NCBI GenBank assembly: GCA_964658305.1
Contig: OZ210885.1
Location: forward strand, 25,544,001 to 25,608,000
DNA: 64,000 nt
Source of the DNA: Leptogorgia sarmentosa
Lineage: Eukaryota
Direction: 5' to 3'
Program-made: the position numbers and the translations under genes
In this document: positions 26,744 through 64,000 of the stretch, one piece after another
Layout: every line of letters begins with the position of its first letter
How positions within the stretch are numbered: position 1 is the first letter of the stretch
The notes under the pieces: model-generated
Told to the model about the DNA's origin: nothing
Databases searched by the model: none
Seen by the model: the letters and a program-made list of their open reading frames with translations, nothing else

Positions 26744-27786
26744 ATGTCTACGGACCGTCGTACACAAGAGAATAGTTCGGTCGATACACAAGTCTTATTC
26801 GAACAAGTTCGAACATATTTTGATCAAAAATTAGAAAGCCTAACGACAGGATTTAAAGCAGCAACCGAAGCACAATCACAGAAGCTAGAACGTCAAGCCG
26901 AAGGCGGAAATTTAAAATTCCCAGGCAACAAAGATCAATTCCTGTTCAATACTTCAATACAGGACCTGTTGACGGAGACAGCAAGCTCACTCCAAAAACA
27001 GGACACATCCGACGCATTAAAGCGTATTGCGGAGGCAGACAAGCCCCTTCAGCAGCGGCAAAAGAAAATTAAGCTGGCAGACAAGAGCGAGGCGGGCTGG
27101 TTAACGGTATAAGAATACGAGGCAGACGATCTAGCCAGCGATTCGGAGGACGAAAAAAGAATAAAGAAAGCACAAGATTCAGCTAATCGCAAGCGCCGAC
27201 AGAACGCCTTAAAGAAAGAAAGAGCTGGTCAGCAACATGCAGCAGTCTATCCTATGCCTAGTACTCGCGCTGGTCATGAGCAATTGTTTTTTCGAGGTAA
27301 ATATCCCCTCCTTTGAGTTTCAGTGGCAGGCAAGTGCTTGCACCGTAGCCTGCCATTCTATATTGTTATGTTGTTGTTATGCTCAGTGGGAAGGAGAAGG
27401 AAAATGATTTTCCTTCGGATGAACGCAGAGAAGCAGAAGGAAATGATATTTTCCTTCGGAGGTCAACGTAGCATGTAATCCATGCAAATTGCGTCAGTAG
27501 ATTTGCATGAGACTATATAAGGAGGTGCAATAGCAGGAATAAGCCATCACGTGAAGCACAAACCTGGCACACCTTCGTCAAAAAAAAATTCTTCTGCTCG
27601 CCTGTACGCTTTCTTGTTTCAGGCCCCAGACTTCCAGCTCCAACCGATATGTGTTTTCGTTGCGGGAAAAGAGGACACTGGAGTTCAATGTGCACAAAGT
27701 TTGCCTTTAGAACACGAGGATCAGGATCCCAAAATAGGTCTGCCGGTGCCGACAGTGGCCAAGGAGACCGGTCAAGCGCCACTTAG
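26744..27786 (+). pseudogene. Spliced gag of the YR retrotransposon (exons 26744-27296 and 27623-27786); one premature stop at 27110
   Basis: KIKLADKSEAGWLTV*EYEADDLASDSEDEKRI. Donor CGAG|GTAAAT and acceptor TTCTTGTTTCAG|GC join in frame to the knuckle CFRCGKRGHWSSMC. Confidence 0.85.
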
Positions 27787-29745
27787 TAACGCCGCGGATT
27801 TTGACTGGAATTATGAAGATAATGACGACATTATACAGGTAGATTCTCAAATTAACACATATGAATATGAACATTCAGATTGTAAAGATGTTAAATCTTG
27901 CAACAGAGTTCAAGGGAGACTTAAACTACATATCCAATTTTGGAAAACAATTGGGGCACCCGACTTTATTGTAGACGCTATTGAAGAGGGTTACAAAATA
28001 CCCTTCCGTGAAACTCCCAAACCTAGGGTCTTTCAAAACAATCTATCTGCACTAAAGGACTGGCAATTCGTACATGAATCTATTACTGACTTACTAAATT
28101 CCGACCGCATCGCACAAGTCACAGAAAAGGATCTGATTGTATGTAGTCCACTATCAGTGTCCACTCAGCCAAGTGGCAAGAAGAGGCTCATTCTCGATCT
28201 GCGATTTGTCAATACGCATGTATACAAACAAACTACGAAGTTTGAAGATTGGCGCACAGCCTTTGAGTTCTTTGACAAAGGTTCCTTTTTCACTAAGTTT
28301 GACCTAAAATCGGGGTATCATCATTTAGAAATTTTCCCGGAACACCAACCCTTTCTGGGGTTCAGTTGGAAAATGGACAAGACTAACCCCAGCTATTTTA
28401 TGTTCACTGTATTGCCATTCGGATTAACCTCAGCACTCTGCATCTTTACCAAACTGTTACGCCCACTGGTAAAGCATTGGCGCTCTAGAGGCATAACTAA
28501 CGTGGTCTATTTAGATGACGGTTTCGATATTGCAAGCAACATCAACACTTGTACAGATAATTCCAACATTATTCGGTCAGATCTTCATCAAGCAGGCTTT
28601 ATCATTAATGACGATAAGTCTGTATGGCAGCCAACGCAGTCCATCATTTGGCTAGGAATACACTGGAACGGGGTCACCAGCTCAGTTAGCATTTCCCCTG
28701 ACAGAATCCATAAAACAAATAAGGTTCTGGAGAAGTTGATCTCCCAAAAGAAAGCGTCTGGTAGAAAACTGGCCTCAGTCATAGGAATGATAATTTCTAT
28801 GGGTCCTGTCATAGGCAATTTGACCCTAATTATGACACGTCACTGCCAGATGTCCGTCGCTTGTACAGATTCATGGGATTTAGTATTCGACCTACATCGC
28901 TATTGCTTGTTAGAATTAGAATTTTGGCAAAGCAACTTACGGTCTGCTAACAATCGTTCAGTGGTTTCTAGCCAGCCCCCTCAGGTAACATTTTTCTCGG
29001 ACGCTAGCGCAGTTGCCTGTGCAGCACACTCAGGCGATGGCAACATGATAGCACATCGCATGTTCACGGATGCCGAAAAAGCCGAAAGTTCTACTTACAG
29101 GGAACTCATTGCCATTAAGTTTGCACTCGAATCATTTAGTTCTTCCATAACTTGGTTTACCGATAGTCAGGTAGCGGCAAAAATCATCATAGTATGAAGT
29201 TCAACCTGCATGAACTGGCTTTTGCTGTTTTCTCAATTTGCTTCAAAGCCCAAATTCGATTGGATATACAATGGATACCTCGGACAAAAAACGAAAGAGC
29301 CGATTATCTTAGCAAAATTATAGATTATGACGACTGGGAAATTACACACCAATTATTTAGTTTATTGGAGGCAAGGTTTGGCCCACACACAGTGGACTGT
29401 TTTGCCGATTTCAAAAATCACAAAGTGTCTAAGTTTTACTCCAAGTTCTGGAACCCCGGGTCGGCCGGGATAAATGCATTTTCACAAAGTTGGGCAGGCG
29501 AAAACGCTCTTTTGGTACCTCCAGTCCCACTTGTACCTAAGGTATTAGCGTTTATGCACTATTGCCATGCCAAGGGGACCCTGATAGTCCCCTATTGGCC
29601 TTCGGCTCCATTTTGGCCTATCCTCGTTTCTCGATATTTCCATAACATTAGAAATCCGTCTTAAGGCAGGGCAACAACCAAAAATGCGTTCTTGGTTCAC
29701 ATGCATGGGAAGGATACATTATAGTTTTTCGCATTGAGTTCTCTT
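27787..29745 (+). pseudogene. RT - RNase H - adenine-methyltransferase-like pol of the YR retrotransposon, frameshifted near 29190 and 29660
   Basis: KRLILDLR, DLKSGYHH, LPFGL, YLDDG; SDAS, SSTYREL, WFTDSQ, WIPR..NERADYLSK; HTVDCFA..FYSKFWNPGS..NAF..W..EN..LVPP. Confidence 0.85.
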
Positions 29746-30008
29746 AACTCCATATGCAACGAATTACTTAAATTTGCTTACATTGTCGGCTTACTATGTA
29801 AAAAAAAAAAATAAATAAAAAAAAGTATTGGTCCCTAGCCAGGTGGCTGCGGGAGAGCATCGTCTTGGAACATTGTGTGAACGGTCCTGCCAGCCGGATG
29901 GCTTTAGAGTAGGAATATTTTGTGATCTCCTAATTGTCTACGTTTTCTGAATAAAGCGTGTCATTATACAGCGTACTGTTAGTACAGTTTCATTTTTCTT
30001 CATTGCAG

Positions 30009-31015
30009 GACCTAGTTTCTGCCCATTGTTGGGGAGAGGTCCACATCGATAACAGAAAACAAATTGTATGTCAGGTTTTGCATTCCCGAGCTAATTCCAC
30101 GGAAAAAGTTACGCTTCTCGATACCAAAAATTCAAGGCATTCGTCCAACAGCAATATCGAGGTCTTCCAAAACCTATTTTCCCGTATACTACGTTGGTAA
30201 TTTTGCAATATCTTTCACACCTGTTCGAAACCAAACGCATGTTTAGTGTCGTTTCACAAGCTTTTTGCGCGTTGAAGTGGATTCACGACCTTGTCCCTCT
30301 CGAGTCCAATCCTGCAGATTCAGCTTTGGTTCGGAATATCGTCGAAGCCAGTAAACGGTCGCACCATGTTGCACCAACAAAAAAGGAACCTATCTCCATG
30401 AATATGTTAGAGCAAATGGTGGATAAGTACGCACATCTGGCCGCTGATCTTAAGGCTATTAGAACGGCAGTGTTGCTATCCTTGGGTTTCTTCGGCTTAT
30501 TGAGAGCCAGTGAATTAATAAACATTAAAGCGAAAGACATAACCATTAATGACAACCACTTAGTTATTACAGTCCCCAGAAGCAAGACCGACCAATATAG
30601 AAATGGCAGTCAAGTTTACATTGCCCGCACTAACGGACTAGTCTGTCCACATGCTTTGCTTCTTCGGTATTTTGATATAGCTAATATTCGACCATCTTCA
30701 GAAGAACATATCTTCAGGGATATCAGGAATACTGGTAGAAAAAATCGCAAGACAACGCTCGGTTCAAGGCCCATGACCTACACTAGGCTACGTGAAATCG
30801 TAAAAGAAGCGATCGCCAGCATTGGCGTAGACCCTACAACATATAGTACGCACAGCCTACGGTCTGGAGGAGCCACGTTCATGGCAAACTCTCATGCTGA
30901 TAATCCACATCTCAATCGTCTATTGAAACTTCAAGGAAGGTGGAAGTCGGACTACTCAAAGGACACTTACATAAAAGATACTTTAGAACATAGATTGATG
31001 TTAAGTAACACATAA
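30009..31015 (+). pseudogene. Tyrosine recombinase of the YR retrotransposon (5' part frameshifted; ORF 30194-31015 open)
   Basis: GLLRASEL, SKTDQYRNG, HSLRSGGAT and GRWKS..SKDTYI give the R, K, HxxR and Y catalytic residues. Confidence 0.9.
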
Positions 31016-39962: not shown

Positions 39963-42900
39963 ATGGCATCTGATAGTATAGATATGGGGTCAGTTTTCCC
40001 ATTTAATCATCTAGATGACACTCTTTTCTCTACTGCTTTGCACGAGATGTCGCACGGTGCTTTAAATTATGATTATAATCGCCTAGAAACTTTAGTATTC
40101 AACCCTATCGAACAAATAACTTTAAAATTCAGCCATCCTCTAGCCTCTAGTCTTGATCCAGATATAAAATTTTTTGAATACTCATTGCCCAAAAGTAACT
40201 ATATGGTTGAAGATGAGGTAAATAACCCAGATAGTATGAAGCAATATGATTCCAGTTTCTCTTTATTGCACCTAAATAGCCATAGTTTAGTTGGCATTTT
40301 TGATAAATTTCAATCTTTAATAGCAAACATGAACAATATATTCTCACTTATTGGGGTTACTGAAACTTGGTTAAATGATCAAACATCTGATACTGTAAAT
40401 ATTCCTGGTTATCATTTTATCTCCAACCATCGTAAACATAAAACTGGTGGTGGAGTCGGTATTTACTTACGAAATATTTTTCAATATAAAGTACTACAAG
40501 ACTGCACAATATCTAATCCTGAAGTAATCGAATCTCTGTTTGTTGAAATTTGTAACCCTCTTGGGAAAAACACCATAGTCGGTACAGTCTACAGACCACC
40601 TAATCAAAATCTTAATTACTTTATGGATGAATTAAATAGAATTCTCTCAACAATTTCTAAGGCTAATAAGAACTGTTATCTGATGGGTGATTTCAACCTT
40701 GACCTGCTACGTTATGAGGAACACGCGGTCACCCAGGAATTCATAGATTCTTTGTTTTCCTACATGTTCATTCCAATTATTACTAGACCTACACACTTAA
40801 CAGCACACACTGCCACACTTATCGATAATATATTCACAAATTGTCTCACACAGAATATTACAAATGGGATTATCATTAATGATATCTCTGATCACCTACC
40901 AATTTTTGCATCTTTTAACAATGAAAAAATTCCATATACTAAGACCTTAAAAACAAATACGTGTGATTATAATGATACAAATTTTAACAATTTTCAATCT
41001 TGTCTTTCACAAGTTAACTGGTCAAGTGTTCTCACTGACCAGGATCCTAACAAAATGTTTGAAATTTTTGTCTCAGAATATAGTAGACATTTTGAAGACT
41101 GTTCTCCTCTTAAAACAATAAAACGCAACAACCCAAAAAAAACAAAATCTCCGTGGATAACTAAAGGTTTATTAGCTTCAGTCAGGAAAAAAAAAAGATT
41201 ATATAAGAAGCTGCTAAAACATCCAACTTTGATATGTGAAACCCAATATAAAACCTATAAAAACAAACTAAATCATCTGATCAGAACTGCAAAGAAAATG
41301 TATTATGACGATAAATTTCAATCTTTAATAGCAAACATGAACAATATATTCTCACTTATTGGGGTTACTGAAACTTGTTTAAATGATCAAACATCTGATA
41401 CTGTAAATATTCCTGGTTATCATTTTATCTCCAACCATCGTAAACATAAAACTGGTGGTGGAGTCGGTATTTACTTACGAAATATTTTTCAATATAAAGT
41501 ACTACAAGACTGCACAATATCTAATCCTGAAGTAATCGAATCTCTGTTTGTTGAAATTTGTAACCCTCTTGGGAAAAACACCATAGTCGGTACAGTCTAC
41601 AGACCACCTAATCAAAATCTTAATTACTTTATGGATGAATTAAATAGAATTCTCTCAACAATTTCTAAGGCTAATAAGAACTGTTATCTGATGGGTGATT
41701 TCAACCTTGACCTGCTACGTTATGAGGAACATGCGGTCACCCAGGAATTCATAGATTCTTTGTTTTCCTACATGTTCATTCCAATTATTACTAGACCTAC
41801 ACACTTAACAGCACACACTGCCACACTTATCGATAATATATTCACAAATTGTCTCACACAGAATATTACAAATGGGATTATCATTAATGATATCTCTGAT
41901 CACCTACCAATTTTTGCATCTTTTAACAATGAAAAAATTCCGTATACTAAGACCTTAAAAACAAATACGTGTGATTATAATGATACAAATTTTAACAATT
42001 TTCAATCTTGTCTTTCACAAGTTAACTGGTCAAGTGTTCTCACTGACCAGGATCCTAACAAAATGTTTGAAATTTTTGTCTCAGAATATAGTAGACATTT
42101 TGAAGACTGTTTTCCTCTTAAAACAATAAAACGCAACAACCCAAAAAAAACAAAATCTCCGTGGATAACTAAAGGTTTATTAGCTTCAGTCAGGAAAAAA
42201 AATAGATTATATAAGAAGCTGCTAAAACATCCAACTTTGATATGTGAAACCCAATATAAAACCTATAAAAACAAACTAAATCATCTGATCAGAACTGCAA
42301 AGAAAATGTATTATGACGATAAATTTCAATTGGTCAAAAACAATCTGGAAGAAACCTGGAAAGTAATAAATGAAGTCACCAACAAGAAAAAACAGAAACA
42401 ATCCTTACCGTCTACACTTCAAGTTGGCGATCGATTAGTTACTGACCCTATTGAAATTGCCAATGGGTTTTGTAATTTCTTTTCAAACATAGGCCCATCC
42501 TTAGCAAATAAAATTCTGGCTGCAACCTCATCTTTTAGACACTATTTAGGACCCACCAACAGTGAAACAATATTCTTAAAACCAACTTCCTTGACTGAAC
42601 TAAGACAAATTTGCATGTCATTTAAGACTGGGACAGCCCCAGGTTATAATATTCCCATGCATGTTATCAAAAATTCTTTTGAATGCATCGTTGATCCTTT
42701 AATGCATTTGATTAACATATCGTTAGAGACAGGGGTCTCTCCAGATAAATTAAAAATGGCCAAAATAATCCCTATGTTTAAAGCAGATAATCCACAATTA
42801 TTTAAAAATTACAGACCCATTTCACTCCTAACAAATTTTTCCAAATTTTATGAAAGAGTTATGCATTCTCGATTACTTGAATTTGCAGAACAATTTGAAA

Positions 42901-43087
42901 TTTTGTGTAATAATCAGTTTGGCTTCCGTAAAAATTATTCAACAAATCTTCCACCAATTCATTTAATAAATAAAATTTCATCCTCTATTGACCATAGGGA
43001 GATTACAGCTGGTGTTTTCTTGGACCTCTCAAAAGCCTTCGATACTATACCATAAACTCTACGCTATGGTATCCGCGGGGTAGCGTT
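39963..43087 (+). pseudogene. LINE ORF2 5' part: APE endonuclease (duplicated in tandem) and RT N-terminus
   Basis: GVTETWL, GGGVGIY, YRPP, GDFN, IDNIF and SDH each occur twice (second copy GVTETCL). Then NYRPISLL, QFGFR and DLSKAFDT. Confidence 0.9.
40302..42330 (+). repeat. 1008-bp in-frame tandem duplication bounded by 13-bp microhomology GATAAATTTCAAT
   Basis: The motif occurs at 40302, 41310 and 42318. The two copies differ at only a handful of bases. Confidence 0.95.
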
Positions 43088-46000
43088 CAGGGGCGGATCC
43101 AGCTAAAAATCTGACCGTATCATAGGTAGAAGACCTCGCATAGCTAGGGGGGTCCGGGGGCATGCCCCCTGGAAATTTTTTTAAATTTGAACCCCGGAAA
43201 TGCCATTTCCTGCGTTCTGAGCGTCAGAGTCTACCTAAAATATGGCCTCAACAAGGCCATATTTTGGACAAAAAGAAACCAAAAACCTGCAATAAAGGTT
43301 GAAATTTTAACAACTGCTCATACCATTTCCTTCAGTGAACTTCTAGAACATAACTCATAATCGGATACGGCAGGGAGAAAAACTCGTAATCGTTCATAAC
43401 TGTTGTACTCCTTGAAACAGCAGCACGAAGGAAGTTATAGAAAATGTTCACTTTCATTTGATTTCAATCATGTTCCATCTTTTCACGGTCAGCATGGAGT
43501 AGATCAGTCAACAACATTCGTCTCGGGTGTTTTCGAGCAAAACGTTCAATGATTTCTTCGATGTCCAGATTTATCACACGATGGACATTCAGTAAGGCCA
43601 GCGATCTCAATCTCTTTTCGCCCATAGTGCTTCTTAAATAGGTTTTTAATCGCCTTAATGTGGATATAGATCTTTCACATGTACAGGTAGTGACAGGAAT
43701 GGTGCAAAAAATCTTCAAAGCGGTGAGTATATTGGGAAATGTATAAGGATCGATTTGTGGTAGAAGATCTTGAAGAGATAAGGGAGTGGTTTCCATAGCA
43801 TTGGTACAGTGTATTGTCCACATTTTCAATTCACACTCGAGGAAATCTGGATCAGGAAGATCGTCTTTATACTTTTCCAGGAAGCGAGAAAAATGTTCAA
43901 TCCAGTCAGATTGAGATACAACAACATTTGGCATGACATATAAAGCATCAAGAGCATCAAGGTTTCCTTCGGAGAATCGAGACTGTATCTGCCCCAATAG
44001 CTGATCGAGGAATGGTATTGTGACAACCTTCTTAAAATAATCCGATGCAGACTCAGAAGGAACATTTTCACGATAAACTTGTCGTCCAGAAGTCCTCGGT
44101 TTCGAAGGTGTTATATTAGCTTCTTTACCCAAGTTTACTGGGACTTCGTAAAACTTTGAGTGGGTGTCATCAATCTCAACTCGAAGCTGATCGATTGTAA
44201 GAAGTAGAAGGGAGACTTTTTCACGTGCTTTTCCGGCGTCTAACGAGGCGTTTTGTAGCTGTAGAGTTAGGGGTTTTGTGCACTTAAGACAGCTCTCCAC
44301 AACAACGAGGGCAACAATAAATGAGAATTTCTCAATCGCATTCTTCATACCACTTGCTCTATAACGAACGTCTTGATTATAAGATTTGTCTTTGGCGATG
44401 AGATCGAGGGAATCAGTTACAGCTGAATAACATTGAATGAAGATATGTAAACCATCGATTCTAGCAACCCATCTGGTTTTGCAAACATTTATCAATTTCT
44501 GATGGCGTTCATCTGGGAATAACTCTTTTATCCTTTCTTGCAGCATCAGTGTTCTTTTAGGAGAACTGTTGAAGAAATCAGAGACAGATCTTACATTGTC
44601 CATCATATCACGTATGATTGGCAAACTGCAGGAAGACGCAACACACAGGTTTAAAACGTGAGAACCACAATGCACGTAGATAGCTTTCTCAAAGCGACAC
44701 TGGATTCGAGCTGCTACACCGGACAACTTGCCAGCCATATTTCCGGCTCCATCATAGCCTTGGCCACGACATTCCTCCATCCTTAAGCCAATGCTGGTGA
44801 TAAATTTAGAAATATTTTCAGACAATGCTTCACCTGATAATCCGTCGCTGCACGGAATAAAACCCAAAAAGTCTTCCCGAATTTTCAAAGATTCGTCAAT
44901 AAATCTCAAAACCACGGCCATTTGTTCTGTGTTTGAGCAGTCCGTTGCCTCATCCGCCAGAAGTGAGAAAAACTTGGCCTTTTTGACATCATCGACTAGT
45001 TCTTCCATAACCATATCTCCACAGATTTCAATCAACTCGTTTTGAATGGTTTTGGATCGGTATGTCTGATTGGAGGGCACACTTCCAAAAAGGACATCTG
45101 TGAGATTCCCACAAGAAGCACCATACTTCAGAATTTCTATAAAATTCCCAGGATTTGATTTTTCGTCTTCTAGATGATGTGCGTCATCACGATGACCACG
45201 AAGGGGGATATTCTGGCGAGCGCAAGTCAAAATCACTCCAACAATAGGGCGAAGGCGCATTCTGTTCTTCTGGATCAACTCCAGCCGTGCATTGTTTATT
45301 TGGACATCAATTCTGGTTTCTTGGTTTTCCATGACTTGTTTGAAATTGAGTGCCCGAATGGTTGCTGTCTTATGGATCGGCGACTTTTCAGCATGATCTT
45401 GCAGCTTTTTAACAAATGATGTCGTAGGACGAAGAGGTGATCTAAATAATCGCTGCAATTTGGTAGCATTGTGAGAACTTTCACCACCAAAAAGGATGCA
45501 GTTTATACAAAACCCACCATCGACAGCCGCAGAATAACACAACCAAGGGAAAGAGGTTAACCATTCATATCGAAACCGCCTTTTAGTCTCCACATTACAC
45601 AAGAAAACATGGTCACTTTCAGGCTTCCACACCTTACAGAGAACATCGTATTTCTCAGCATCAGACAACATTGCTACACGATTGACGAAGTTGTTGATGT
45701 CATAAGGGTGAACAGTTCCTTGTGTTGATGGTTTGGGATCAGCATCCTCTTTGGTAGAAGGAAACGCCTGAATAACATTCTGGTTATCCGATTCGATAGC
45801 CGATTGCTGTTTTGCCTCATGATCTGGTTTTCTCTTCGACAATATTGCATCCAAAACAAGTTGTTTTCGTTTTCTACCAGGAAACATTTTCTCTGCTGGC
45901 TTATCAACTTTTGCTGTTGTTTTGATAGAAGTGGACGTTGTCGATGCAGGACGAGGTGCTATAGTTGTAATGGGTCTGGAAAGATGAGGCACGAAGTATT

Positions 46001-48078
46001 GATCACCAGTTGCAACAGACTGTTCAGGAAGGCAGAGAGCAACAAAGTGATTCTTTAACTCTGGTATCTTTCGGTCAACAAGATAGCGACTTGGCAAGGC
46101 GGCACAACGGAAAATGTGAATAATGGTAGGATCTTGGCCAAATCTTGGTTTAATTGTACAGTTATACATCTTAGCCAACGAATCCCACTGCTCTTTTGGC
46201 GCTGTCTCATTGGATATTGGAAAGTATGACTGAATAGTGCATCCAATAACAGTAGCTAAGCCAAACATACACATCATCGAGGAGAACTGGAAATTTTTAG
46301 AATTTTGCTCTGCTTCTTCAATAACTGATGCAATATTACCATCTTTCTCAAGTGCAGAAAGTGCAGAATCAGATACACATGGCAAATGCATTACCAAGTG
46401 AGGTGAATGCTCCACTATCATGTTGTAATTTAATAACAGGATGATTGCAGTAGAACTCTGCATTTTCGTACAGTTCAATACTTGTTAAACATCGTAAGAA
46501 TGTAGCTAGCTTTTCTGTCCCAGTAAAAGCAATTGAGGCTGCATTATAGAGACAATTCCCGTTAGGCGAGGTGCTGAATGATTTAAATGTAGATAAATAA
46601 AATCACATACACAGTACTATATATAAAGAAACATGCATAGTATATGCATGTTATCAAATCAAATTTAATTCACAAGTTTTTTTGTATCGTAAGACGAAAA
46701 AGACGAAGGCGGATATAAATTCAGTGATTTAAGTTTTCAATGACAATATCCTCAACATTTTGTAGCACTACAGTACCATATGTTCTCGAAATATACTATA
46801 TAACACTTGCGACCCAATATATGAAATGAAGTCTGATTTATTGAATAAATAATAAATTATTTGGCGCTCATGTATCGTCCATATCAATTTCACGCAGCTT
46901 TATGCTAATATATTGTAGCTTTTGTGTAGTGTTGATGGCGATAGTCATAACATTGTATTTCATTGTATATTTTGCGATTATTGACCTTTGCCCTTAGTTA
47001 ATTTTATATTAATCTTGCTTGTGTATTTCTATCTATATTTAGTTTTTTATCTTTTTGTTATATTAGTGTTACTCGTTCCCGTTTTTTAAATACTCAGTCT
47101 TGTATTGTATCGGTGTTGTTGCTGTTGTCGATTATTAAATTTCTTAAAACTCACTCGTATCGTGTGCGTAACCCGACCGTACCGGCCGTCTTACATAAAG
47201 ATAGGATTTACATAGTATTCGTCACAAACAGACAGTACGCAAATTATTATATATTTATGTAATGTAAAATAAATTATTTACCTTACAGGGATATGTTGAG
47301 CACATCTTTCAAGCTGAACTTTCGGAAATTGCATTTTGGAAAATTCACAAACACAGACGCTTTTTTTGTCAACATTATTCATGAAACCACAGACAATGCC
47401 TTCACAATAACCACGTAAAAGCTTCAATTCAGTGTTACAACCATCTTCTTTAGCATGAATTCGCTCAAAAATCCGTTTTATTTGATGGAGCACGTTTGTG
47501 TTACTCGACATGGCGAACGTATTAATTTATCAACAGTGAAAAATATAATATGATTTGTATCTGCCGCTCGATAAATATTGCGCAACACATTTGATTTGGC
47601 CACCGTATCAGACCGTATCAACACCGTATCGAAATTCTGCATTCTTATTGGTGGAGAGCCAGAGAATGACGACACAGTATCAAAAATGATCGGAATGTTA
47701 CTATTTCGGGAAACAAAATGGTACTGACCGTATCAGTGACCGTATCATGATCGCAGGCGCCGTATTCGTCTAAATTATTCAGCCTGTGTGGCAGGCTGTA
47801 TTTGCGGGCTTAAAATTCGAATATCAATTTAATTCTTCAATTAATTCGTTGGCTTCGGTCCGAAAGTAAGCTGCCCTCCAGAATTTACACACGGCATAGT
47901 CGACGTTTTAAAATTATTTTTAAATAATTTTGAATAATATAAAACAAATAAAATATTATTCAATGCGTAAAATCTTTAATTTTCAGTTCTTGTTAATCAT
48001 TTAATCACGGATTTAACATTTTTTGGAAAATCTGACCGTATCAGCTGATACGTTCGATATGGTCTGGATCCGCCCCTG
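43088..48078 (-). mobile_element. hAT element with 5-bp TSD (hAT5 type) inserted in the LINE RT
   Basis: GCGTT|CAGGGGCGGATCCAG ... CTGGATCCGCCCCTG|GCGTT, with subterminal gaccgtatca repeats. Confidence 0.9.
43464..47511 (-). CDS. OTU/vertnin-like domain fused to a PRKRIR/THAP12-like hAT transposase (exon 1 ~47511-47282; exon 2 ~46590-43464 with one frameshift near 46375)
   Basis: STSPNGNCLYNAASIAFTGTEKLATFLRCLTSIELYENAEFY (~46575-46450), FSSMMCMFGLATVIG and NHFVAL. Then TTF-type Zn finger, LRGHRD, ADEATD, GQGYDGA, HCGSHVLNL, TRW and CERSISTLRRLKTYLRSTM. Confidence 0.8.
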
Positions 48079-51972: not shown

Positions 51973-54900
51973 CAGGGGCGTCGTGGCCTTGTCATTTTAG
52001 GGGGGGCCAAAGGGAAATTTTCCCGACAGAAAGGCGGCATATCCGACATATAATGGACTGTAATATGGCTAAAGCTATTAAGTAACTTGCAAGTTGTACT
52101 AGATGCTAGTATTTTAGTAATTGTTGCAATAACGGCGTGCTTGCAAACGAATTGATGAGTTCATCGTAATCTAAAGAAACCGTGAGCTCCTGTTCAACGT
52201 TTATGAGCATTAGCGAATTTAAATGCTGCTGACCCATTGTAGATCTCAACCTGTTTTTGACATATTTCAGTTTTGAAAATGTTCGTTCACACTTTGTAGA
52301 ACCGATCGGAAGTGTGACCAGTATCTTGTACAATCTATACAACTGTGGAAATGCACTTTGGAGATTAAATTTGGACAGAACTTTCAAAACTGTGATATAA
52401 TTCTGTCGACTTACGTCAGTGTTGCTTCCAAGAGAAAGGTCCCTTGGTGGGTCTTTCTCTTGGAGCTTTGGGTAGGTTGCTACAAACGAAAAATATTCTC
52501 CTTTCAGCTTTTCCTCGTCAAGACCATAATTTCGAGCCACACTTTGAAAACCATCTGCAGGTAACATGGTGCGTGTGTTGGCATCTTGAAACCGCTCCGG
52601 ATCAAGTAGAGAGAAATCGGAGAGAATGGCCTTGTGGGATGAGAAGCGTTCTCGAATTGAGACAATGGCTGTATCAATGGCGTAAATGAACGTTTCTCGT
52701 TGGTATCTGCTTCTCTGGTCTTCCTCGGTTTCATCGTTGCACAATTCACCAGGAAGGCGCTTCTTCCTTCGTACACGTTTCTCAACAAAATCTTGTTCTA
52801 CTAGTTCATGTTTCTCGCAAAAAGCTTTTGCGAGAGCATGAACTTTCTCAAATTCTTCACGAAGCTATTGAAGCTGGGATTCTGCTGTTTCCACCAATTG
52901 AATGGCTGTCAGCAAGTCAATCTTTTCCGATTGAAGATACAGGGAGGCAGGATTGGTTATAGCAAAGATCTCCTTGAAGACATGCGCGGTTAGAACCATT
53001 TCAAATGAAGTAATTTTTTTGCTCCAAAGCTTCAGCATCTGTGATGGTCTCCCTGCTATGGTTTGCTGATTGACAGTCTTGGAGCGTGTCCACAAAGCAA
53101 TCAAACAAATCGCTGTCTTGTGCAAAAAAAACATTCTCTAAGGCTTTCCGGTGACACCACCATCTTGTCGTCGAAACTCTCTGTGGTCGATGAATCTGCG
53201 TAATTTTAGACTTTTTATGCTTCTCTTCGAGGACGTCACTACGCTTTCTTGACTGCGAGAAGAATACGTACAACTTCTCTGATACGCCAAATAAGGACTT
53301 TGATGCAATGGAGGACTGGCAGGCTTCCATAATTACAAGATTCAAAACATGGTCAAACGTCCAAATGAATAAGCATTGCGGATTCGCTTGTTGAACCAGT
53401 GTTTTCACTCCCCTGTACTGCCCAGTCATAACAGACGCGCCGTCATAAGACTGTCCGACAGCGTTATTTATTGTTAACGTACTCTTCTTTAAAATCTCTT
53501 GAAGAGTATTGAATAATCCTTCGGCGGTTGAGTCCTTCACTCGCTGAACACATACCAACCGCTCCACAATGTCGAGAGATTTGCTTAAGTAACGCATAAT
53601 AATGGACAGTTGATCGGCATGGGAACTGTCAGTGGTGCAGTCCATAGCAAAGCTATACATCCCAGCGCTATTGATCTCATCTACGATGACTTTCAAGAGC
53701 TGGTTACCGGCGCTGTTGATGATTTTATTTTGGGATTCTGCACTCATAAATGAGACAAGTTTTCCTCTTCCACTCCTAGATTTCTTGTAGTTTGTTTTTC
53801 CGCTTCCCTTTTTTATTTTCTTTAACTTTGCACTTCTTACTTCGTCTACGTGATTGGATAGTGGTTCGTCGTATTTAGAAAGAACATCCACAAATGCCAG
53901 GAAATTTCCTTTCTTTGCTGCCACCTCTTCCGTTAATGATTCTTCGCGATGACCTCGAAAAGCAATGCCTTGTTTAGCTAAACACAGTACGATATCAATA
54001 AGCCGATGCATCACCATTCTGTTCTTGCGAACCTTCTCTTGCCTCGCTTTTCCCAGGATTTCTGCTTCATTACAAAGTTGTTCATTGATGGAAGTTTGTG
54101 AACAATAGTTTCCAAAATCAACGGTTGCATTAATATGACATTGAGATTGTTCGTGCTTCGAAAGTTTCTCGTTAGCCTTCTTCCAGTCGCGGTAACCAGT
54201 CTTTGTAAACGTTGTCTCCTTATTTGTTCCACTAAAGAAGATGCAGAAGTGACAAAAAACTGCATCTTCTGCTGGGGAGTACGAGAGCCACTTTCTCTCA
54301 AAATTATCTTTTCCAACCTTTACTTGGTACCAGCTTTCACTGAAGGAGCGCTCGCGAGAACCATACTTTGATCTCGTAAATTGCTTGCCTTTTATTTCTG
54401 CTGCTTTTTGTTGGTAAGGGCCTCGCAAAATCAACTGCTTTCGGGTGATTGCATTAAATTCTCTTAGTTTGTGTATATAGGTCGTGGAATCGGCCGTCTC
54501 GCTTAGGATGCAGGCTGTTCCACTAGTCGATTGCCGTGATTCCTCTGAAGACTTTTCCTCGATTGGCCCATCATCGACTAAAACCGATATTTCTTCATTC
54601 CTGCTTACTTCGGCAGTGTCGATATGTTTAAGAAACTCAGAACTTTTGGTGCATCTTTGGCTTAATGGTGTCATTGGGTTGGCATCAGAATTCTCGAGCG
54701 TCGGTGATGTTTTGTTGAAGGTTGAAGAAAAACCTTCGATCTCATGACTACTGTCTACGCTAATGTGGTCGTTAATCTCGTCAATCTGGCCGTCAACTAT
54801 CAGTGCCCTTGCTTCCTCATTGTTTATAACACGTCCTCCTCCATCTGCGATGGACTGGTAAGGCAGAGAAACGTCAATTTTCTCGTTGCTGGCTTCTAGG

Positions 54901-55980
54901 GATATGGTGGAGCCGTTACTGCTCGCTGTTTGCATTTGATCACAGGCAGCTGAAGGTGTGATAACCGAATGGCCACAGGAGTCACTGTCATTGGAATGTG
55001 TGTCTGTTGTGTCTGTCACATATGTCTGGGGCTGAGAAACTTTTTTACCAACTTGCATTCGATGACTTTGTTCATTGGAAGAATGTTGTTTCTTGGTTGA
55101 TGATGAACATGCAGCCTATGTTAGTAGATAGAAGAAATTTCATTTAAATTAACAAGCTATAGTTGCACCGACGTATTTAATAAGGCATGGCCCTCCAAAT
55201 TGGCGCGCGTTAATGAGGTGCTTAGACGTCTGGCTCTAATTGTTCAAAATGGCAGCCTACTTCCTGATGAAAATATTTTTGTACATTTTCGGGTAGTTTT
55301 GCATGTTTAATTTATCTCTGAGCAAACGTTTTTGTTTCCGATATGCTTCGGTATAACGTTGACACAAATTAATTAAACTATTACTATAATTATATAAATT
55401 TACCTGGAAAGGGTTTGCTGGAGCACCGGCATACTCGTACAGAATATGCTGGTGTTTCTTTACCTTGTCCGAGTGATATTTGTTATTGTGTCGAGATCTA
55501 TAGTCACTGTCAAATGTCTTTTCGCATAGCAGACATTCAATTTTCCGACGCTTGGGCGTTGGCGGCATTACTCACAGTCTCACACAGGCGAGCTTCTTTT
55601 AACTTTATAACTTTTCAGACTGATTTCACGTTGTGCATTCAAATATTATGTTCAAATTTTGCATACTGCGTGTGGCACTGTTTGAGCCCACGCGCTCCCA
55701 CAGAGCAGCTTCAGACTGAGACGTCATATAGGCGCGCATGTACCAGCAAGCGCTGAATGACGGCCCAGCCCGTGAAGATTAGTTGATTATGAGTCATCAG
55801 ACTAATCACTAATGCGATATGCAATAATATTATTCAACTATCAAGGTACGACTTCTTTATTTACGTTACATAGCTTTAAACTATTCCAACAAATGTGAAA
55901 CTGATCTAATTTTCCGACAACGCACAACGTTAGAGGGGGGGCCATGGCCCCCCCTGGCCCCCCCGGCCACGACGCCCCTG
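51973..55980 (-). mobile_element. hAT element with 16-bp TIR and 8-bp TSD, nested in the GAG-ended element
   Basis: TTCATGCA|CAGGGGCGTCGTGGCC ... GGCCACGACGCCCCTG|TTCATGCA. Confidence 0.95.
52106..55568 (-). pseudogene. ZMYM1-like hAT transposase; exon 1 55568-55404, exon 2 from 55115; frameshifts near 53000-52750
   Basis: A phase-0 GT-AG intron keeps the frame. WLSYSP..FCHFC, FRGHRE, MDCTTD, GQSYDGA, TTRW, CERTFSKLK. Confidence 0.85.
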
Positions 55981-59718: not shown

Positions 59719-60953
59719 CTTGCACATGAATTGTGCATTTATTGGTAAAAGCATGAAAGTTGATATGCAGTTTATAGAACAAGTATTGCATGAGGAGTAT
59801 TTTTGGATGTATAGGGGCATCTCAAAAAATAATGGATGATGAAAATTTGGGATTTCTTAAATTCTACCATTAAAATATACTGCATAGTTAAAAATGCGAA
59901 ATTTCGTGATCAGCTGTGCAAGATTCACTTACATCATTAGGAGACCAAGAAAAACTATGTAGCCGTTTCTTTAGTATTTGTTCAAACTGCATGCCTACGA
60001 ACATTCATGCTTTTATCATGAAATGCACAGTTCCCAGGGGCGGATTCAGACAGGTTTAACAGGTTTATGTAAACCTGTCAGATTTTCCAGAGAAAGAAAA
60101 TTCTGAAATATTTTATTGTTTTTGGCCTTAATTGAGGACAATTTCTTTCACAAAAAGTGTGATATATAACTTACTACGTATGCTATTTAAATGCAGCATG
60201 AAATTTGATCATGGATTACATCATTTATATGACCTTGCGATTTTAAATTATTGACGTACAACCCCACTTGAAGATTATCGCGTTTGTTTCCGCTTACGAA
60301 ATACCGTAGTTGTGGCAAGTGCTGATATATCGTCGTGGGTCGTGGCCAGTAAACGCGACCTCAAACAAATATAGACGCCTGCAGTTGTGTGTAAACCGGT
60401 GGTCAGAGTTTTCCTAATGAGAATAAACCGGTCGCTACGCCTTTTGATTGGCTAAACGGCAGTGCATCGGCGGATGTAAACCGGTCATAAACCTGTGAAT
60501 CGAGCAGTCTGAAAAAAACCTGGGTAAGAGGGTTAACAGAACTCGAGGACGAGCGAAATATGTTTATAATTTTGCGTGGCGGAATATTTGTGTTGGCAAC
60601 TATGAATGAGGAAATGGTTTATATGACAAAGCTTTTGTGCATTTACATGGTTCTTGTTTCTTTTAAAGGTTTGTTTAAAATTATATATTAAATAATTGTG
60701 TTTATCTGTTATATGAGCATAACATACATCGATGCGTCAACGTTTCTTGTGACCTAATAGTGTGTACTTATAGCGCAAAAAATGCATATAGATTTGTATA
60801 GATTTGTGTGATTGTTGAGTCATTGCGTTGGTGACAGCGCATTAGGAAATGCGTGATTCTGACTAAGCAGTCCTTCCAGCTTAAATACAATTTTGTTCGG
60901 CTGTTTGTTCATTTTAAATTTGGTTTGATAACGTGTACAACTGTCGATCTGAA

Positions 60954-63539
60954 ATGCCAACTATATCTATATTGAAGCTAGCTGTACTTGTTCTATTGAT
61001 AACTAATATCGATGCGTCAAAGAGCACTAAATTATATTCCGTGGTGTCGTACCAATTATCATTAATGCCTCGCTACCAGATCAAATATTTTAATGGCAGA
61101 GCATTGTGTTATTCTAATACGACTGCCAGCTATTCTACATCGTCTGTTACTCTTGCAACTTCTGGTGATGTTGAGAAAAATCCCGGCCCTAAAGGATCCA
61201 GGAGTGAAGACCAAGAGCCAAGCAATATTTCTCGTAAACGACCAGCCAGTGAAATGTCAGCAGAGGAATCCAACCCGTATGATATCGGAATATTTCGATT
61301 TCCAAACGCTCAGCATTTTCTAATGAACAGAAGTACGATCTTATTTTGAAGTGCTGGAAACCCGAACCATCGTACAATTTTCCTAAAACTGTTGAAGGCA
61401 GAAATACGAGATCGTTCAGGTACGAGTGGCTACGAACATATCCTTGGTTGCGCTATAGTCCAATGTATGATGGTGCGTTTTGCCTGCCCTGCGTTTTATT
61501 TGGAAACGATACAGCGTTCGAGAGGTTAGACAAACTTTTTAAAAGCCCGCTTAAACTGTGGACTAGTGCGGCAAGTAAGTTTTCTGCACATGAGAAAAGA
61601 TCCTCAAAACACAAGAACAGCGTCACTGATTTACAGTTGTTCAAGGCTTCGATGCAGAACAAGAGAAAAGATATCGATGAACTTTTGTCCGCTCAGGTGG
61701 AAAAAAGAATAAAAGAAAACCGGGAAAGATTGTCCCCTATAGTAAAGTGTATTTTGCACTGTGGAAAACTAACCAGGCACTTAGAGGTCATCGAGATGAT
61801 TCGACTCAGGATAGGGAACAACAGGGAAATTTCAAAGACCTTATAGAGTTTAGGATAGAATCTGGAGATACTAAGTTAAAGGAGCATTTGGAAACAGCCA
61901 GTAAAAATCAGACATATCTTTCCAAAACAACACAAAATCAGCTAATCAGTGCCACTTCTAAATTTATTCGCGATACGATTTTGACAAATATCAATAATGG
62001 CTCCAGGTATTACAGCATAATGGCAGATGAAGCAACTGATATCTCTAATAAAGAGCAACTCTCTATGGTAGTGAGATACGTATATAACAGTAAAATCATT
62101 AGAGAGTCATTTATAGGCTTTTGTCATCTTTCTGATGGTTGTACAGGAGTTGCTATAAAGAATGAGATTCTAAAACAAATTAAAGATTTTGGCTTAGATA
62201 TTAACCTGTGTAGAGGTCAAGGATACGATGGTGCAGGAGCAGTAGCTGGTATTCGCAATGGAACCGCTGCTTTGATTAGATCAGAATATACTAAAGCTAT
62301 TTTTGTGCATTGTTCAAGCCACAGATTGAATTTATGTGTTGCTGCATCTTGTTCAATTCAGATTGTACGTGAAATGATGGATAACTGTAAGTCTATTGCT
62401 GATTTCTTTAACTTGTCACCCAAACGACAAAGCTATTTAATTGAAAATGTAAAGACATATTTGCCTGGCTCTAATCATTTTGTTTTAAAAGACTATGTAG
62501 AACAAGGTGGATTGAACGAATAGATGGACTTGAAAGAACATTGGAGCTTTATGTACCAATTATTAAAACTTGGAATAATGTCAGAGGACCAAATTCGGAG
62601 AAGTGGAATAATAATACTATTACATTAGCTGCAGGACTGCATAAGAAGTTAATTGGGTTTGAATTCATAATTGCTTTGAAAGTTGTTAGCAAAATAATTG
62701 GTTACACATGCAAGGCAACAGTTTTATTGCAAAGAACTGAGATGGATCTTGCTGGTGTAAAGTCAGAAATTGATTTCATAGTTGAAAAGTGTACTAATTT
62801 CAGATCAAACATTAATACTGAGCATGGGAACCTTTACCAAGAAGCTGTTGAGATCGGTACAAAAGTAGGAGAATTGCCAACCATGCCAAGAGTCGTACAA
62901 ACCCAGATACACAGACCAAACGCTCCGGCAAAAACACCCGAAGATTATTATAGGATAAATTTGACTGAACCTTTTTTGGCACATTTGATAACATCACTGA
63001 ATGAAAAATTTGAAGAATCAACACTGATCACCTATGAAGGCTTTTCCATTATTCCAAATATTCTGGTTAATTTGGTGGAGAAGAGTTTGCCTTGGAAAAG
63101 CAAATTGGAAAATTTTATTGACTTTTATCAAGCTGACCTGCCAAATATCGAGGGACTTGATGCAGAACTAGATATGTGGGAAACAAGATGGGTGAAAGAA
63201 GCGAGAAAGCTGAGAGAGTCTGACTCGGAACAAACCATTCCAAAGAGAATTTCTGATACTCTATTACATTCAGATGAAGAGTTTTACCCCAATATAAGCA
63301 CAATGTTAAATATTTTAGCCATCGTTCCCGCCACAACATGCACATGTGAAAGGTCTATTTTGGCATTAAGGAGATTGAAAACTTGGTTGAGATCAGCAAT
63401 GACAAACGAAAGATTGACTGGTTTGGCATTAATTCATGTTTATAGGCACATGACCTTTGATGTAGAAATTATTGATAACTTTGCACATGCATATCCCAGA
63501 TGGATGCGTTTGTTAAACGTTGTTTGCTCAGATGAATAA
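60954..63539 (+). pseudogene. Signal-peptide-like leader + 2A motif + PRKRIR/THAP12-like hAT transposase, with several frameshifts
   Basis: MPTISILKLAVLVLLITNIDA; TLATSGDVEKNPGP; NPYDIG..KCWKP; FRYEWL..FCLPC; LRGHRD; ADEATD; GQGYDGA; HCSSHRLNL; CERS..LRRLKTWLRSAM. Confidence 0.85.
61167..61190 (+). other. 2A/StopGo ribosome-skipping consensus D-V-E-x-N-P-G-P
   Basis: gat gtt gag aaa aat ccc ggc cct = DVEKNPGP, preceded by LATSG. Confidence 0.8.
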
Positions 63540-64000
63540 CGCTTTAAAATAATAACTTACTTATAATGTACGATATGTATATATATTAACTAAAATATAT
63601 TCTATCTTATTCCGTATTGAACAAGTTGTCAGATCCTCTAAGTCGAAGGGGCATTATATAAAAAAAAGATTTGTTAAAAACATGCATTTTCATATTGCTG
63701 ATATTGTCAAACGAGTGCCCCCCAAAACGCAGGAAATGCTGTTTTAGAGCACTAATTTTCAAAAATTTTGTCATGTCTAACCCTGGATCCGCCCCTGGTT
63801 CCAGCTAGATTTTGCACTAAACTGCCCTATTGGTGTGAAAGACCAGCCTGAAACTAAATCAATTCTAAAGCCATGTGCCGGACAATGGGAACACTTTTTA
63901 TAGACCGTCGTAGAGAGAACATAGTAAGCTCTGATCCGCAAATTTGCGCACAATATGTGTGGGTGCGGTTTCTGGGATGCAAAGGATGTGTGAAGTGTAA

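Follow-up and report, generated by a model that had tools for sequence, protein, structure and literature searches.

A conserved 2A leader, probably of LINE origin, in front of a hAT5 transposase of Leptogorgia sarmentosa

The locus described here raises the question of what a 2A (StopGo) motif is doing in front of a hAT transposase: whether it is translated with the enzyme, where it came from and whether it could free the enzyme from the leader. In the window, by which we mean the whole 64,000 nucleotide stretch of Leptogorgia sarmentosa DNA that was analyzed (contig OZ210885.1, positions 25,544,001 to 25,608,000), a single frame at 60918-61349 carries the ATG at 60954, MPTISILKLAVLVLLITNIDA, SSVTLATSGDVEKNPGP, SRKRP and NPYDIG (61272-61289), confirming the first-pass annotation, which had placed a signal-like leader, a 2A and the two downstream motifs in one frame. 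Leader codons 1-39 (60954-61070, + strand, as are all features here unless noted) comprise the ATG, a basic residue and an h-like hydrophobic run at codons 9-19 (60978-61010). A conserved 30-codon block, RYxIKYF-xxRxLYYSNTTASY (61071-61160), leads into the 2A/StopGo core SGDVEKNPG/P (61161-61190), where the skip is predicted to fall after Gly (61185-61187) and before Pro (61188-61190), and a variable linker, predicted to be disordered (61191-61271), carries a basic RKRP (61233-61244), which we infer to be NLS-like, and a Met at 61254. The core therefore sits at the N-terminal boundary of the transposase, as had been proposed, and does so likewise in the relative P0198; the hAT5 element at 45710 has HPYDIN, and the proposed alignment of NPYDIG to it also held.

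NPGP occurs once in the window when all six frames are scanned, and an exact D(V/I)ExNPGP would be expected by chance 4e-5 times per window. GDVEKNPGP also has the form of the class A 2A core as defined in PMC12846837, (D/G/C/N)(V/I)ExNPGP with G before D. Judged by hydropathy, the N-terminus has the basic n-region and hydrophobic h-region of a signal peptide; of the 694 frames in the window that are open from an ATG for 30 codons, only 5, the leader among them, contain a nine-residue run at least as hydrophobic. The best nine-residue hydropathy is 2.2-4.1 in all eight subfamily representatives, hydrophobicity being retained (8/8) although residue identity is low. Hydrophobicity that is kept where sequence is not is typical of signal peptides. 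The leader had no match in Pfam, nor any at 0.9 or more in the ESM Atlas. An explanation through RNA structure was rejected, as the fold around the core was no better than that of shuffles (z -0.2).

The element that carries the leader spans 60035-63797 (3763 bp) and is bounded by TIRs and target-site duplications. The left 15-bp TIR, CAGGGGCGGATTCAG (60035-60049), is complementary at 14 of 15 positions to the right TIR (63783-63797, - strand), and a 5-bp target-site duplication (TSD), GTTCC, flanks the element at 60030-60034 and 63798-63802. Between the short TIRs lies a transposase gene (61272-63539) with a zinc-finger-like N-terminus, DUF4371 (PF14291), a DDE core and a C-terminal hAT dimerisation domain (PF05699), as expected of the hAT superfamily. 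The hAT5 group is defined by a 5-bp TSD (PMC12730594, after Repbase Reports), so that GTTCC on both sides places the element in hAT5, an assignment by TSD length. Among named proteins the closest to the transposase are from corals, with identity of about 45%. Aligned with intact P0198, the window transposase falls into four frames; it is frameshifted near 61318, 61770 and 62490, and a short gap lies near 62570. The first shift is followed by the stop of the leader ORF, which is 131 codons long. At 61318 one base separates the window from contigs of two runs in two studies; such aligned contigs represent other copies or alleles, and carry no information on copy number or expression. With three frameshifts and a product that would be only 131 aa, the window copy is dead. 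Three runs from two studies contain an internal-deletion derivative, with 61108 joined to 63674, in which the 2A and the transposase are gone but the two ends remain, together with the first ~51 leader codons.

The first-pass annotation supposed one ORF running from leader through 2A to transposase, and this stands for relatives but not for the decayed window copy. P0198 is a complete single ORF of 866 aa with a hydrophobic N-terminus, SGDIETNPGP, DUF4371 and the hAT dimerisation domain, together with the motifs ADEATD, GYDGAG, CRTRW and TCTCEGS, and in P0001 (474 aa) the frame is likewise open through the 2A into the transposase. A model of P0198 built on a 47-row alignment reached a mean pLDDT of 81 and matched Hermes (E 8e-11); it shows a helix at residues 3-17 and no confident structure at 18-102, a region covered by few alignment rows. 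Short TIRs, a 5-bp TSD, DUF4371, the dimerisation domain and a Hermes-like fold are all shared with the hAT5 group as described in PMC12730594. A single-sequence model was uninformative (pLDDT 34), and sequence searches of the PDB found no transposase.

To place the leader among relatives we compared the 137 proteins that align over at least 100 residues of the P0198 core. A 2A-like core is present in 14 of the 23 proteins with at least 61% core identity; of the other nine, eight start within five residues of the block and one has a frameshifted leader. No 2A-like motif was found in the called proteins of the 114 relatives at 48% identity or less, a set compared at the protein level, in which many gene calls reach only a few residues upstream; for the second hAT5 of the window the DNA itself was examined, and it has no 2A. 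The leader-bearing group forms one branch, with SH-aLRT 100 in a 65-row tree and 100/100 in a 46-row tree (12 of the 46 rows), both trees being built on subsets of the 137 rows, with short rows dropped and the outgroup subsampled. A single acquisition of the leader would fit this monophyly. The 2A leader is thus restricted to one hAT5 clade, other relatives beginning near PxD(I/V)G or having an OTU-like N-terminal domain. A scan of genome contigs gave 18 candidates, none of which was confirmed.

Two doubts attached to the original proposal, that the motif might not be conserved and that the region might not be translated, were not borne out. Two relatives were available as DNA, L001 and L002; L002 is decayed and was left out, so the codon test is a single pair, the window against L001 (77% nucleotide identity). 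Over the 40 codons ending in NPGP, pN is 0.11 and pS 0.67 (Fisher p 2e-8), the leader differences falling 2, 8 and 19 at codon positions one, two and three. The same pair gives pN/pS of 0.09/0.76 and 0.07/0.68 in the transposase, values that the leader resembles. Taken by themselves, the 10-codon core and the linker are not significant (p 0.07 each), and the signal region is unconstrained (pN 0.46, pS 0.56). The non-coding DNA upstream is hardly alignable between the two copies. Selection of this kind suggests that the leader is translated.

Across the deepest split of the eight representatives, mean identity is 0.88 in the core, 0.63 in the 30 pre-core residues, 0.64 in the first 75 residues of the transposase (the zinc-finger region), and 0.21 in both linker and signal region. 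The 2A is thus kept across diverged hAT5 subfamilies, and its changes among representatives lie mostly at V/I and at the free x position, which is the variation StopGo tolerates. At least one intact-core copy exists in seven of the eight subfamily groups; counted over 32 clade copies, the core is intact in 19 and altered in 13, mostly by differing changes in fragmentary genes. NPGP changes are denser than those of the pre-core block (6/16 against 11/120, post hoc p 0.01), a rate closer to the linker's 18/80. Within subfamilies the variants of 61179-61190 are NPGI, NPGL, NPCP, NSGP, KPGP and SPGP, a mild excess, with NPGI being one allele that occurs in two studies. CpG decay was rejected as their cause, the predicted Gly-to-Ser change not being among those seen.

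Could the leader instead be a LINE fragment lying in a 5' UTR or intron, with the transposase made from Met 61254 or from a spliced exon? In subfamilies A-D a Met does stand 20-21 residues past the core, close to where leader-less relatives start. This Met is absent in E, F and G, however, so a downstream start is not general, and the leader frame is preserved in all eight groups. Purifying selection acts in that frame, third positions accounting for 19 of the 29 differences, while the upstream non-coding DNA of the same two copies hardly aligns. A crude scan for splice acceptors, by which the intron possibility was examined, gave no candidate site from the ATG to where the transposase begins. 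We regard the untranslated reading as largely refuted and very improbable.

As to where the leader came from, a profile built from seven leaders returned 17 of 7996 proteins scored, ranking ten hAT proteins and then LINE-type proteins with PHD and APE, plus RT in one of them (P0152). Several of the LINE proteins share the whole layout of a hydrophobic N-terminus, a basic stretch, YYxNS(T)A(S/T) and SGD(V/I)EKNPGP. With the core removed, all five LINE leaders reach 40-50 when scored on the pre-core block, a level attained by none of 2000 shuffles, and 13 other 2A contexts score 12-20, at background (best 44/2000); the comparison is partly circular because the LINE proteins came from the leader profile. 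Independent of that search is the sea-urchin L2 peptide STR-51_SP, which has the identical nine residues LYYSNTTAS (PMC12338488, supplement 2) and is active in skipping (PMC3708506). The match of the hAT leader to those of LINE ORF2, together with the common LYYSNTTAS, makes its capture from a LINE likely and supports the LINE-derived leader suggested at the outset. The direction, LINE to hAT, is also likely, because the leader type is found in several LINE clades and in one hAT clade, an argument from distribution without a rooted tree. P0151, P0152 and P0153, LINE ORF2 proteins with a signal-like N-terminus, a YYxNS block, 2A, PHD and APE, are of the candidate donor type. A viral donor was rejected in favor of a LINE, as the resemblance at four loci in viral contigs is confined to the 2A core.

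Whether ribosomes skip at this core is a separate matter. In active eukaryotic 2As the stretch before the core is helical and rich in Leu (PMC13405545). The leader context ends in SG or CG, as the L-rich motifs do, yet the ten residues preceding the core hold only 0-2 Leu among the representatives, and a Leu-poor context would argue against efficient skipping. In the same paper 20-mers were tested in HEK293T; among ten of the same register (Y/F-x-x-S), hand-picked by us from 24 tested 20-mers with TSGD(V/I)E, two skipped, two fell off and six showed no skip. These peptides would leave out the conserved YYxNT block, because they are only 20 residues long, and their source proteins were not found in the supplement searched. 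STR-61, -69 and -197, YYSN-type like STR-51, are active as 30-mers (PMC3708506, PMC12338488); hAT leaders have 18 residues between YYxN and SGD, and LINE leaders 13-15. It also should be considered that, according to PMC2978324, an N-terminal signal can suppress skipping in cells, though a signal-anchor directly before a 2A still left the downstream protein free.

The locus is a decayed copy from a hAT5 clade whose 2A leader is conserved, evidently translated and likely captured once from a LINE ORF2, and on balance we think it somewhat probable that partial skipping frees a working transposase in intact relatives. Ribosomes would start at the leader ATG and the hydrophobic N-terminus would engage SRP; skipping at NPG/P would release a leader of about 78 aa, and the Pro-started transposase, with its RKRP or RKRS stretch, could then reach the nucleus. 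Without skipping, either a fused product would enter the ER or synthesis would stop at the 2A, and in both cases the product would be lost to transposition. The dose of transposase would therefore be capped by how often ribosomes skip, which is probably at a low to moderate rate. This dose-limit reading extends the down-regulation by 2A proposed for single-ORF LINEs (PMC3894237) and the dual targeting seen with NLR proteins. A bolder version is possible but somewhat doubtful: that an ER signal plus StopGo cassette from a retrotransposon makes skipping obligatory, every unskipped transposase going to the ER and the 2A setting the dose, that YYxNTTxSY, a long and Leu-poor context, would count as a new type of upstream StopGo sequence needing about 30 residues, and that the cassette would be traded between transposon classes.

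Two other readings take the leader as translated and dispense with efficient stop-and-go. The leader may be an attenuator, whose nascent peptide stalls or drops ribosomes, the enzyme arising from rare restart or read-through. The selected stretch is the whole 30-40 residues, an exit-tunnel length, most retrotransposon 2A-like peptides tested in PMC13405545 lowered the protein level, some only falling off, and those of the same register mostly did not skip; the reduction there accompanied 3-6 leucines, however, against 0-2 in hAT leaders, and the final Pro, required for restart, is present in 8/8 representatives, so we hold attenuation to be unlikely. Less likely again is that there is no recoding at all, the leader staying fused and its basic-aromatic block acting in the protein as a tether, a localisation or a degradation signal, with the core a LINE relic. 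Such a relic would agree with the poor upstream context, with NPGP being changed in many copies and with the codon test of the core by itself, but across the deep split the core is better kept than the zinc-finger region, identity drops sharply straight after the Pro, the region has no confident fold, though few alignment rows lie there, and the called proteins of the 114 relatives have no 2A-like motif. Partial skipping remains the reading we prefer over both.

To our knowledge, the cellular 2As published so far belong to retrotransposons or to a small number of host gene families. In the literature and recent 2A surveys, as far as main texts and readable supplements go (Repbase reports, theses and subscription journals lying outside this scope), we found no 2A in a hAT or other TIR transposase; among the "transposase" matches listed in the survey supplements there was only L1 ORF1, and in the PMC13405545 table a single Acropora protein matches PIF1. 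The hAT leader is real and conserved, is probably undescribed and, with its activity predicted, would be a variant of the N-terminal 2A of LINEs. Single-ORF APE-type non-LTR retrotransposons (sea-urchin L2/Rex1 STR-51, -61, -69 and -197) likewise have a 2A 40-80 residues from the ORF start, before the mobility enzyme (Odon et al. 2013, PMC3708506), and the STR peptides share with the hAT leader the pre-core type R-x-x-YYxN(S/T)T(A/S) (PMC12338488). Unlike them, the hAT leader is hosted by a cut-and-paste DDE transposon with TIRs, its spacer is 3-5 residues longer, its context is Ser/Thr-rich rather than Leu-rich, and it is known here from sequence. The Strongylocentrotus NLR 2As also combine a signal-like N-terminus with a 2A before a protein working outside the ER, and there routing by skipping, with dual targeting, was demonstrated (Roulston et al. 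2016, PMC4981915); in those the 26-aa 2A is itself the signal, whereas the hAT leader has a hydrophobic run that precedes the core by about 60 residues. A conserved case of this kind would represent a recoding module that passed from a class I to a class II element and is held there by selection. It would also offer a clean test case for the proposal that N-terminal 2As throttle transposon enzymes, since excision and integration of hAT elements are simple to assay and sister elements lacking the leader provide natural controls.

Other elements of the window and protein set were noted in passing. P0012, a protein of 314 aa without a domain match, carries four exact or near 2A cores and degenerate tandem repeats. 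The second hAT5 of the window (43088-48078, - strand) has perfect 15-bp TIRs, the 5-bp TSD GCGTT and no 2A; it has an OTU-like N-terminal domain with GNC near 46560 and a frameshift near 46375, and its relative P0093 matches PF02338. It would appear that hAT5 N-termini swap modules. At 39963-43052 (+) a LINE ORF2 frame has its endonuclease region twice in tandem, a duplication or an assembly artefact, and at 27521-31012 (+) RT/RNase H frames are followed by a tyrosine-recombinase-like frame, read by eye as probably DIRS-type. A third hAT element (51973-55980, - strand) has CAGGGGCGTCG ends and a canonical 8-bp TSD, TTCATGCA.
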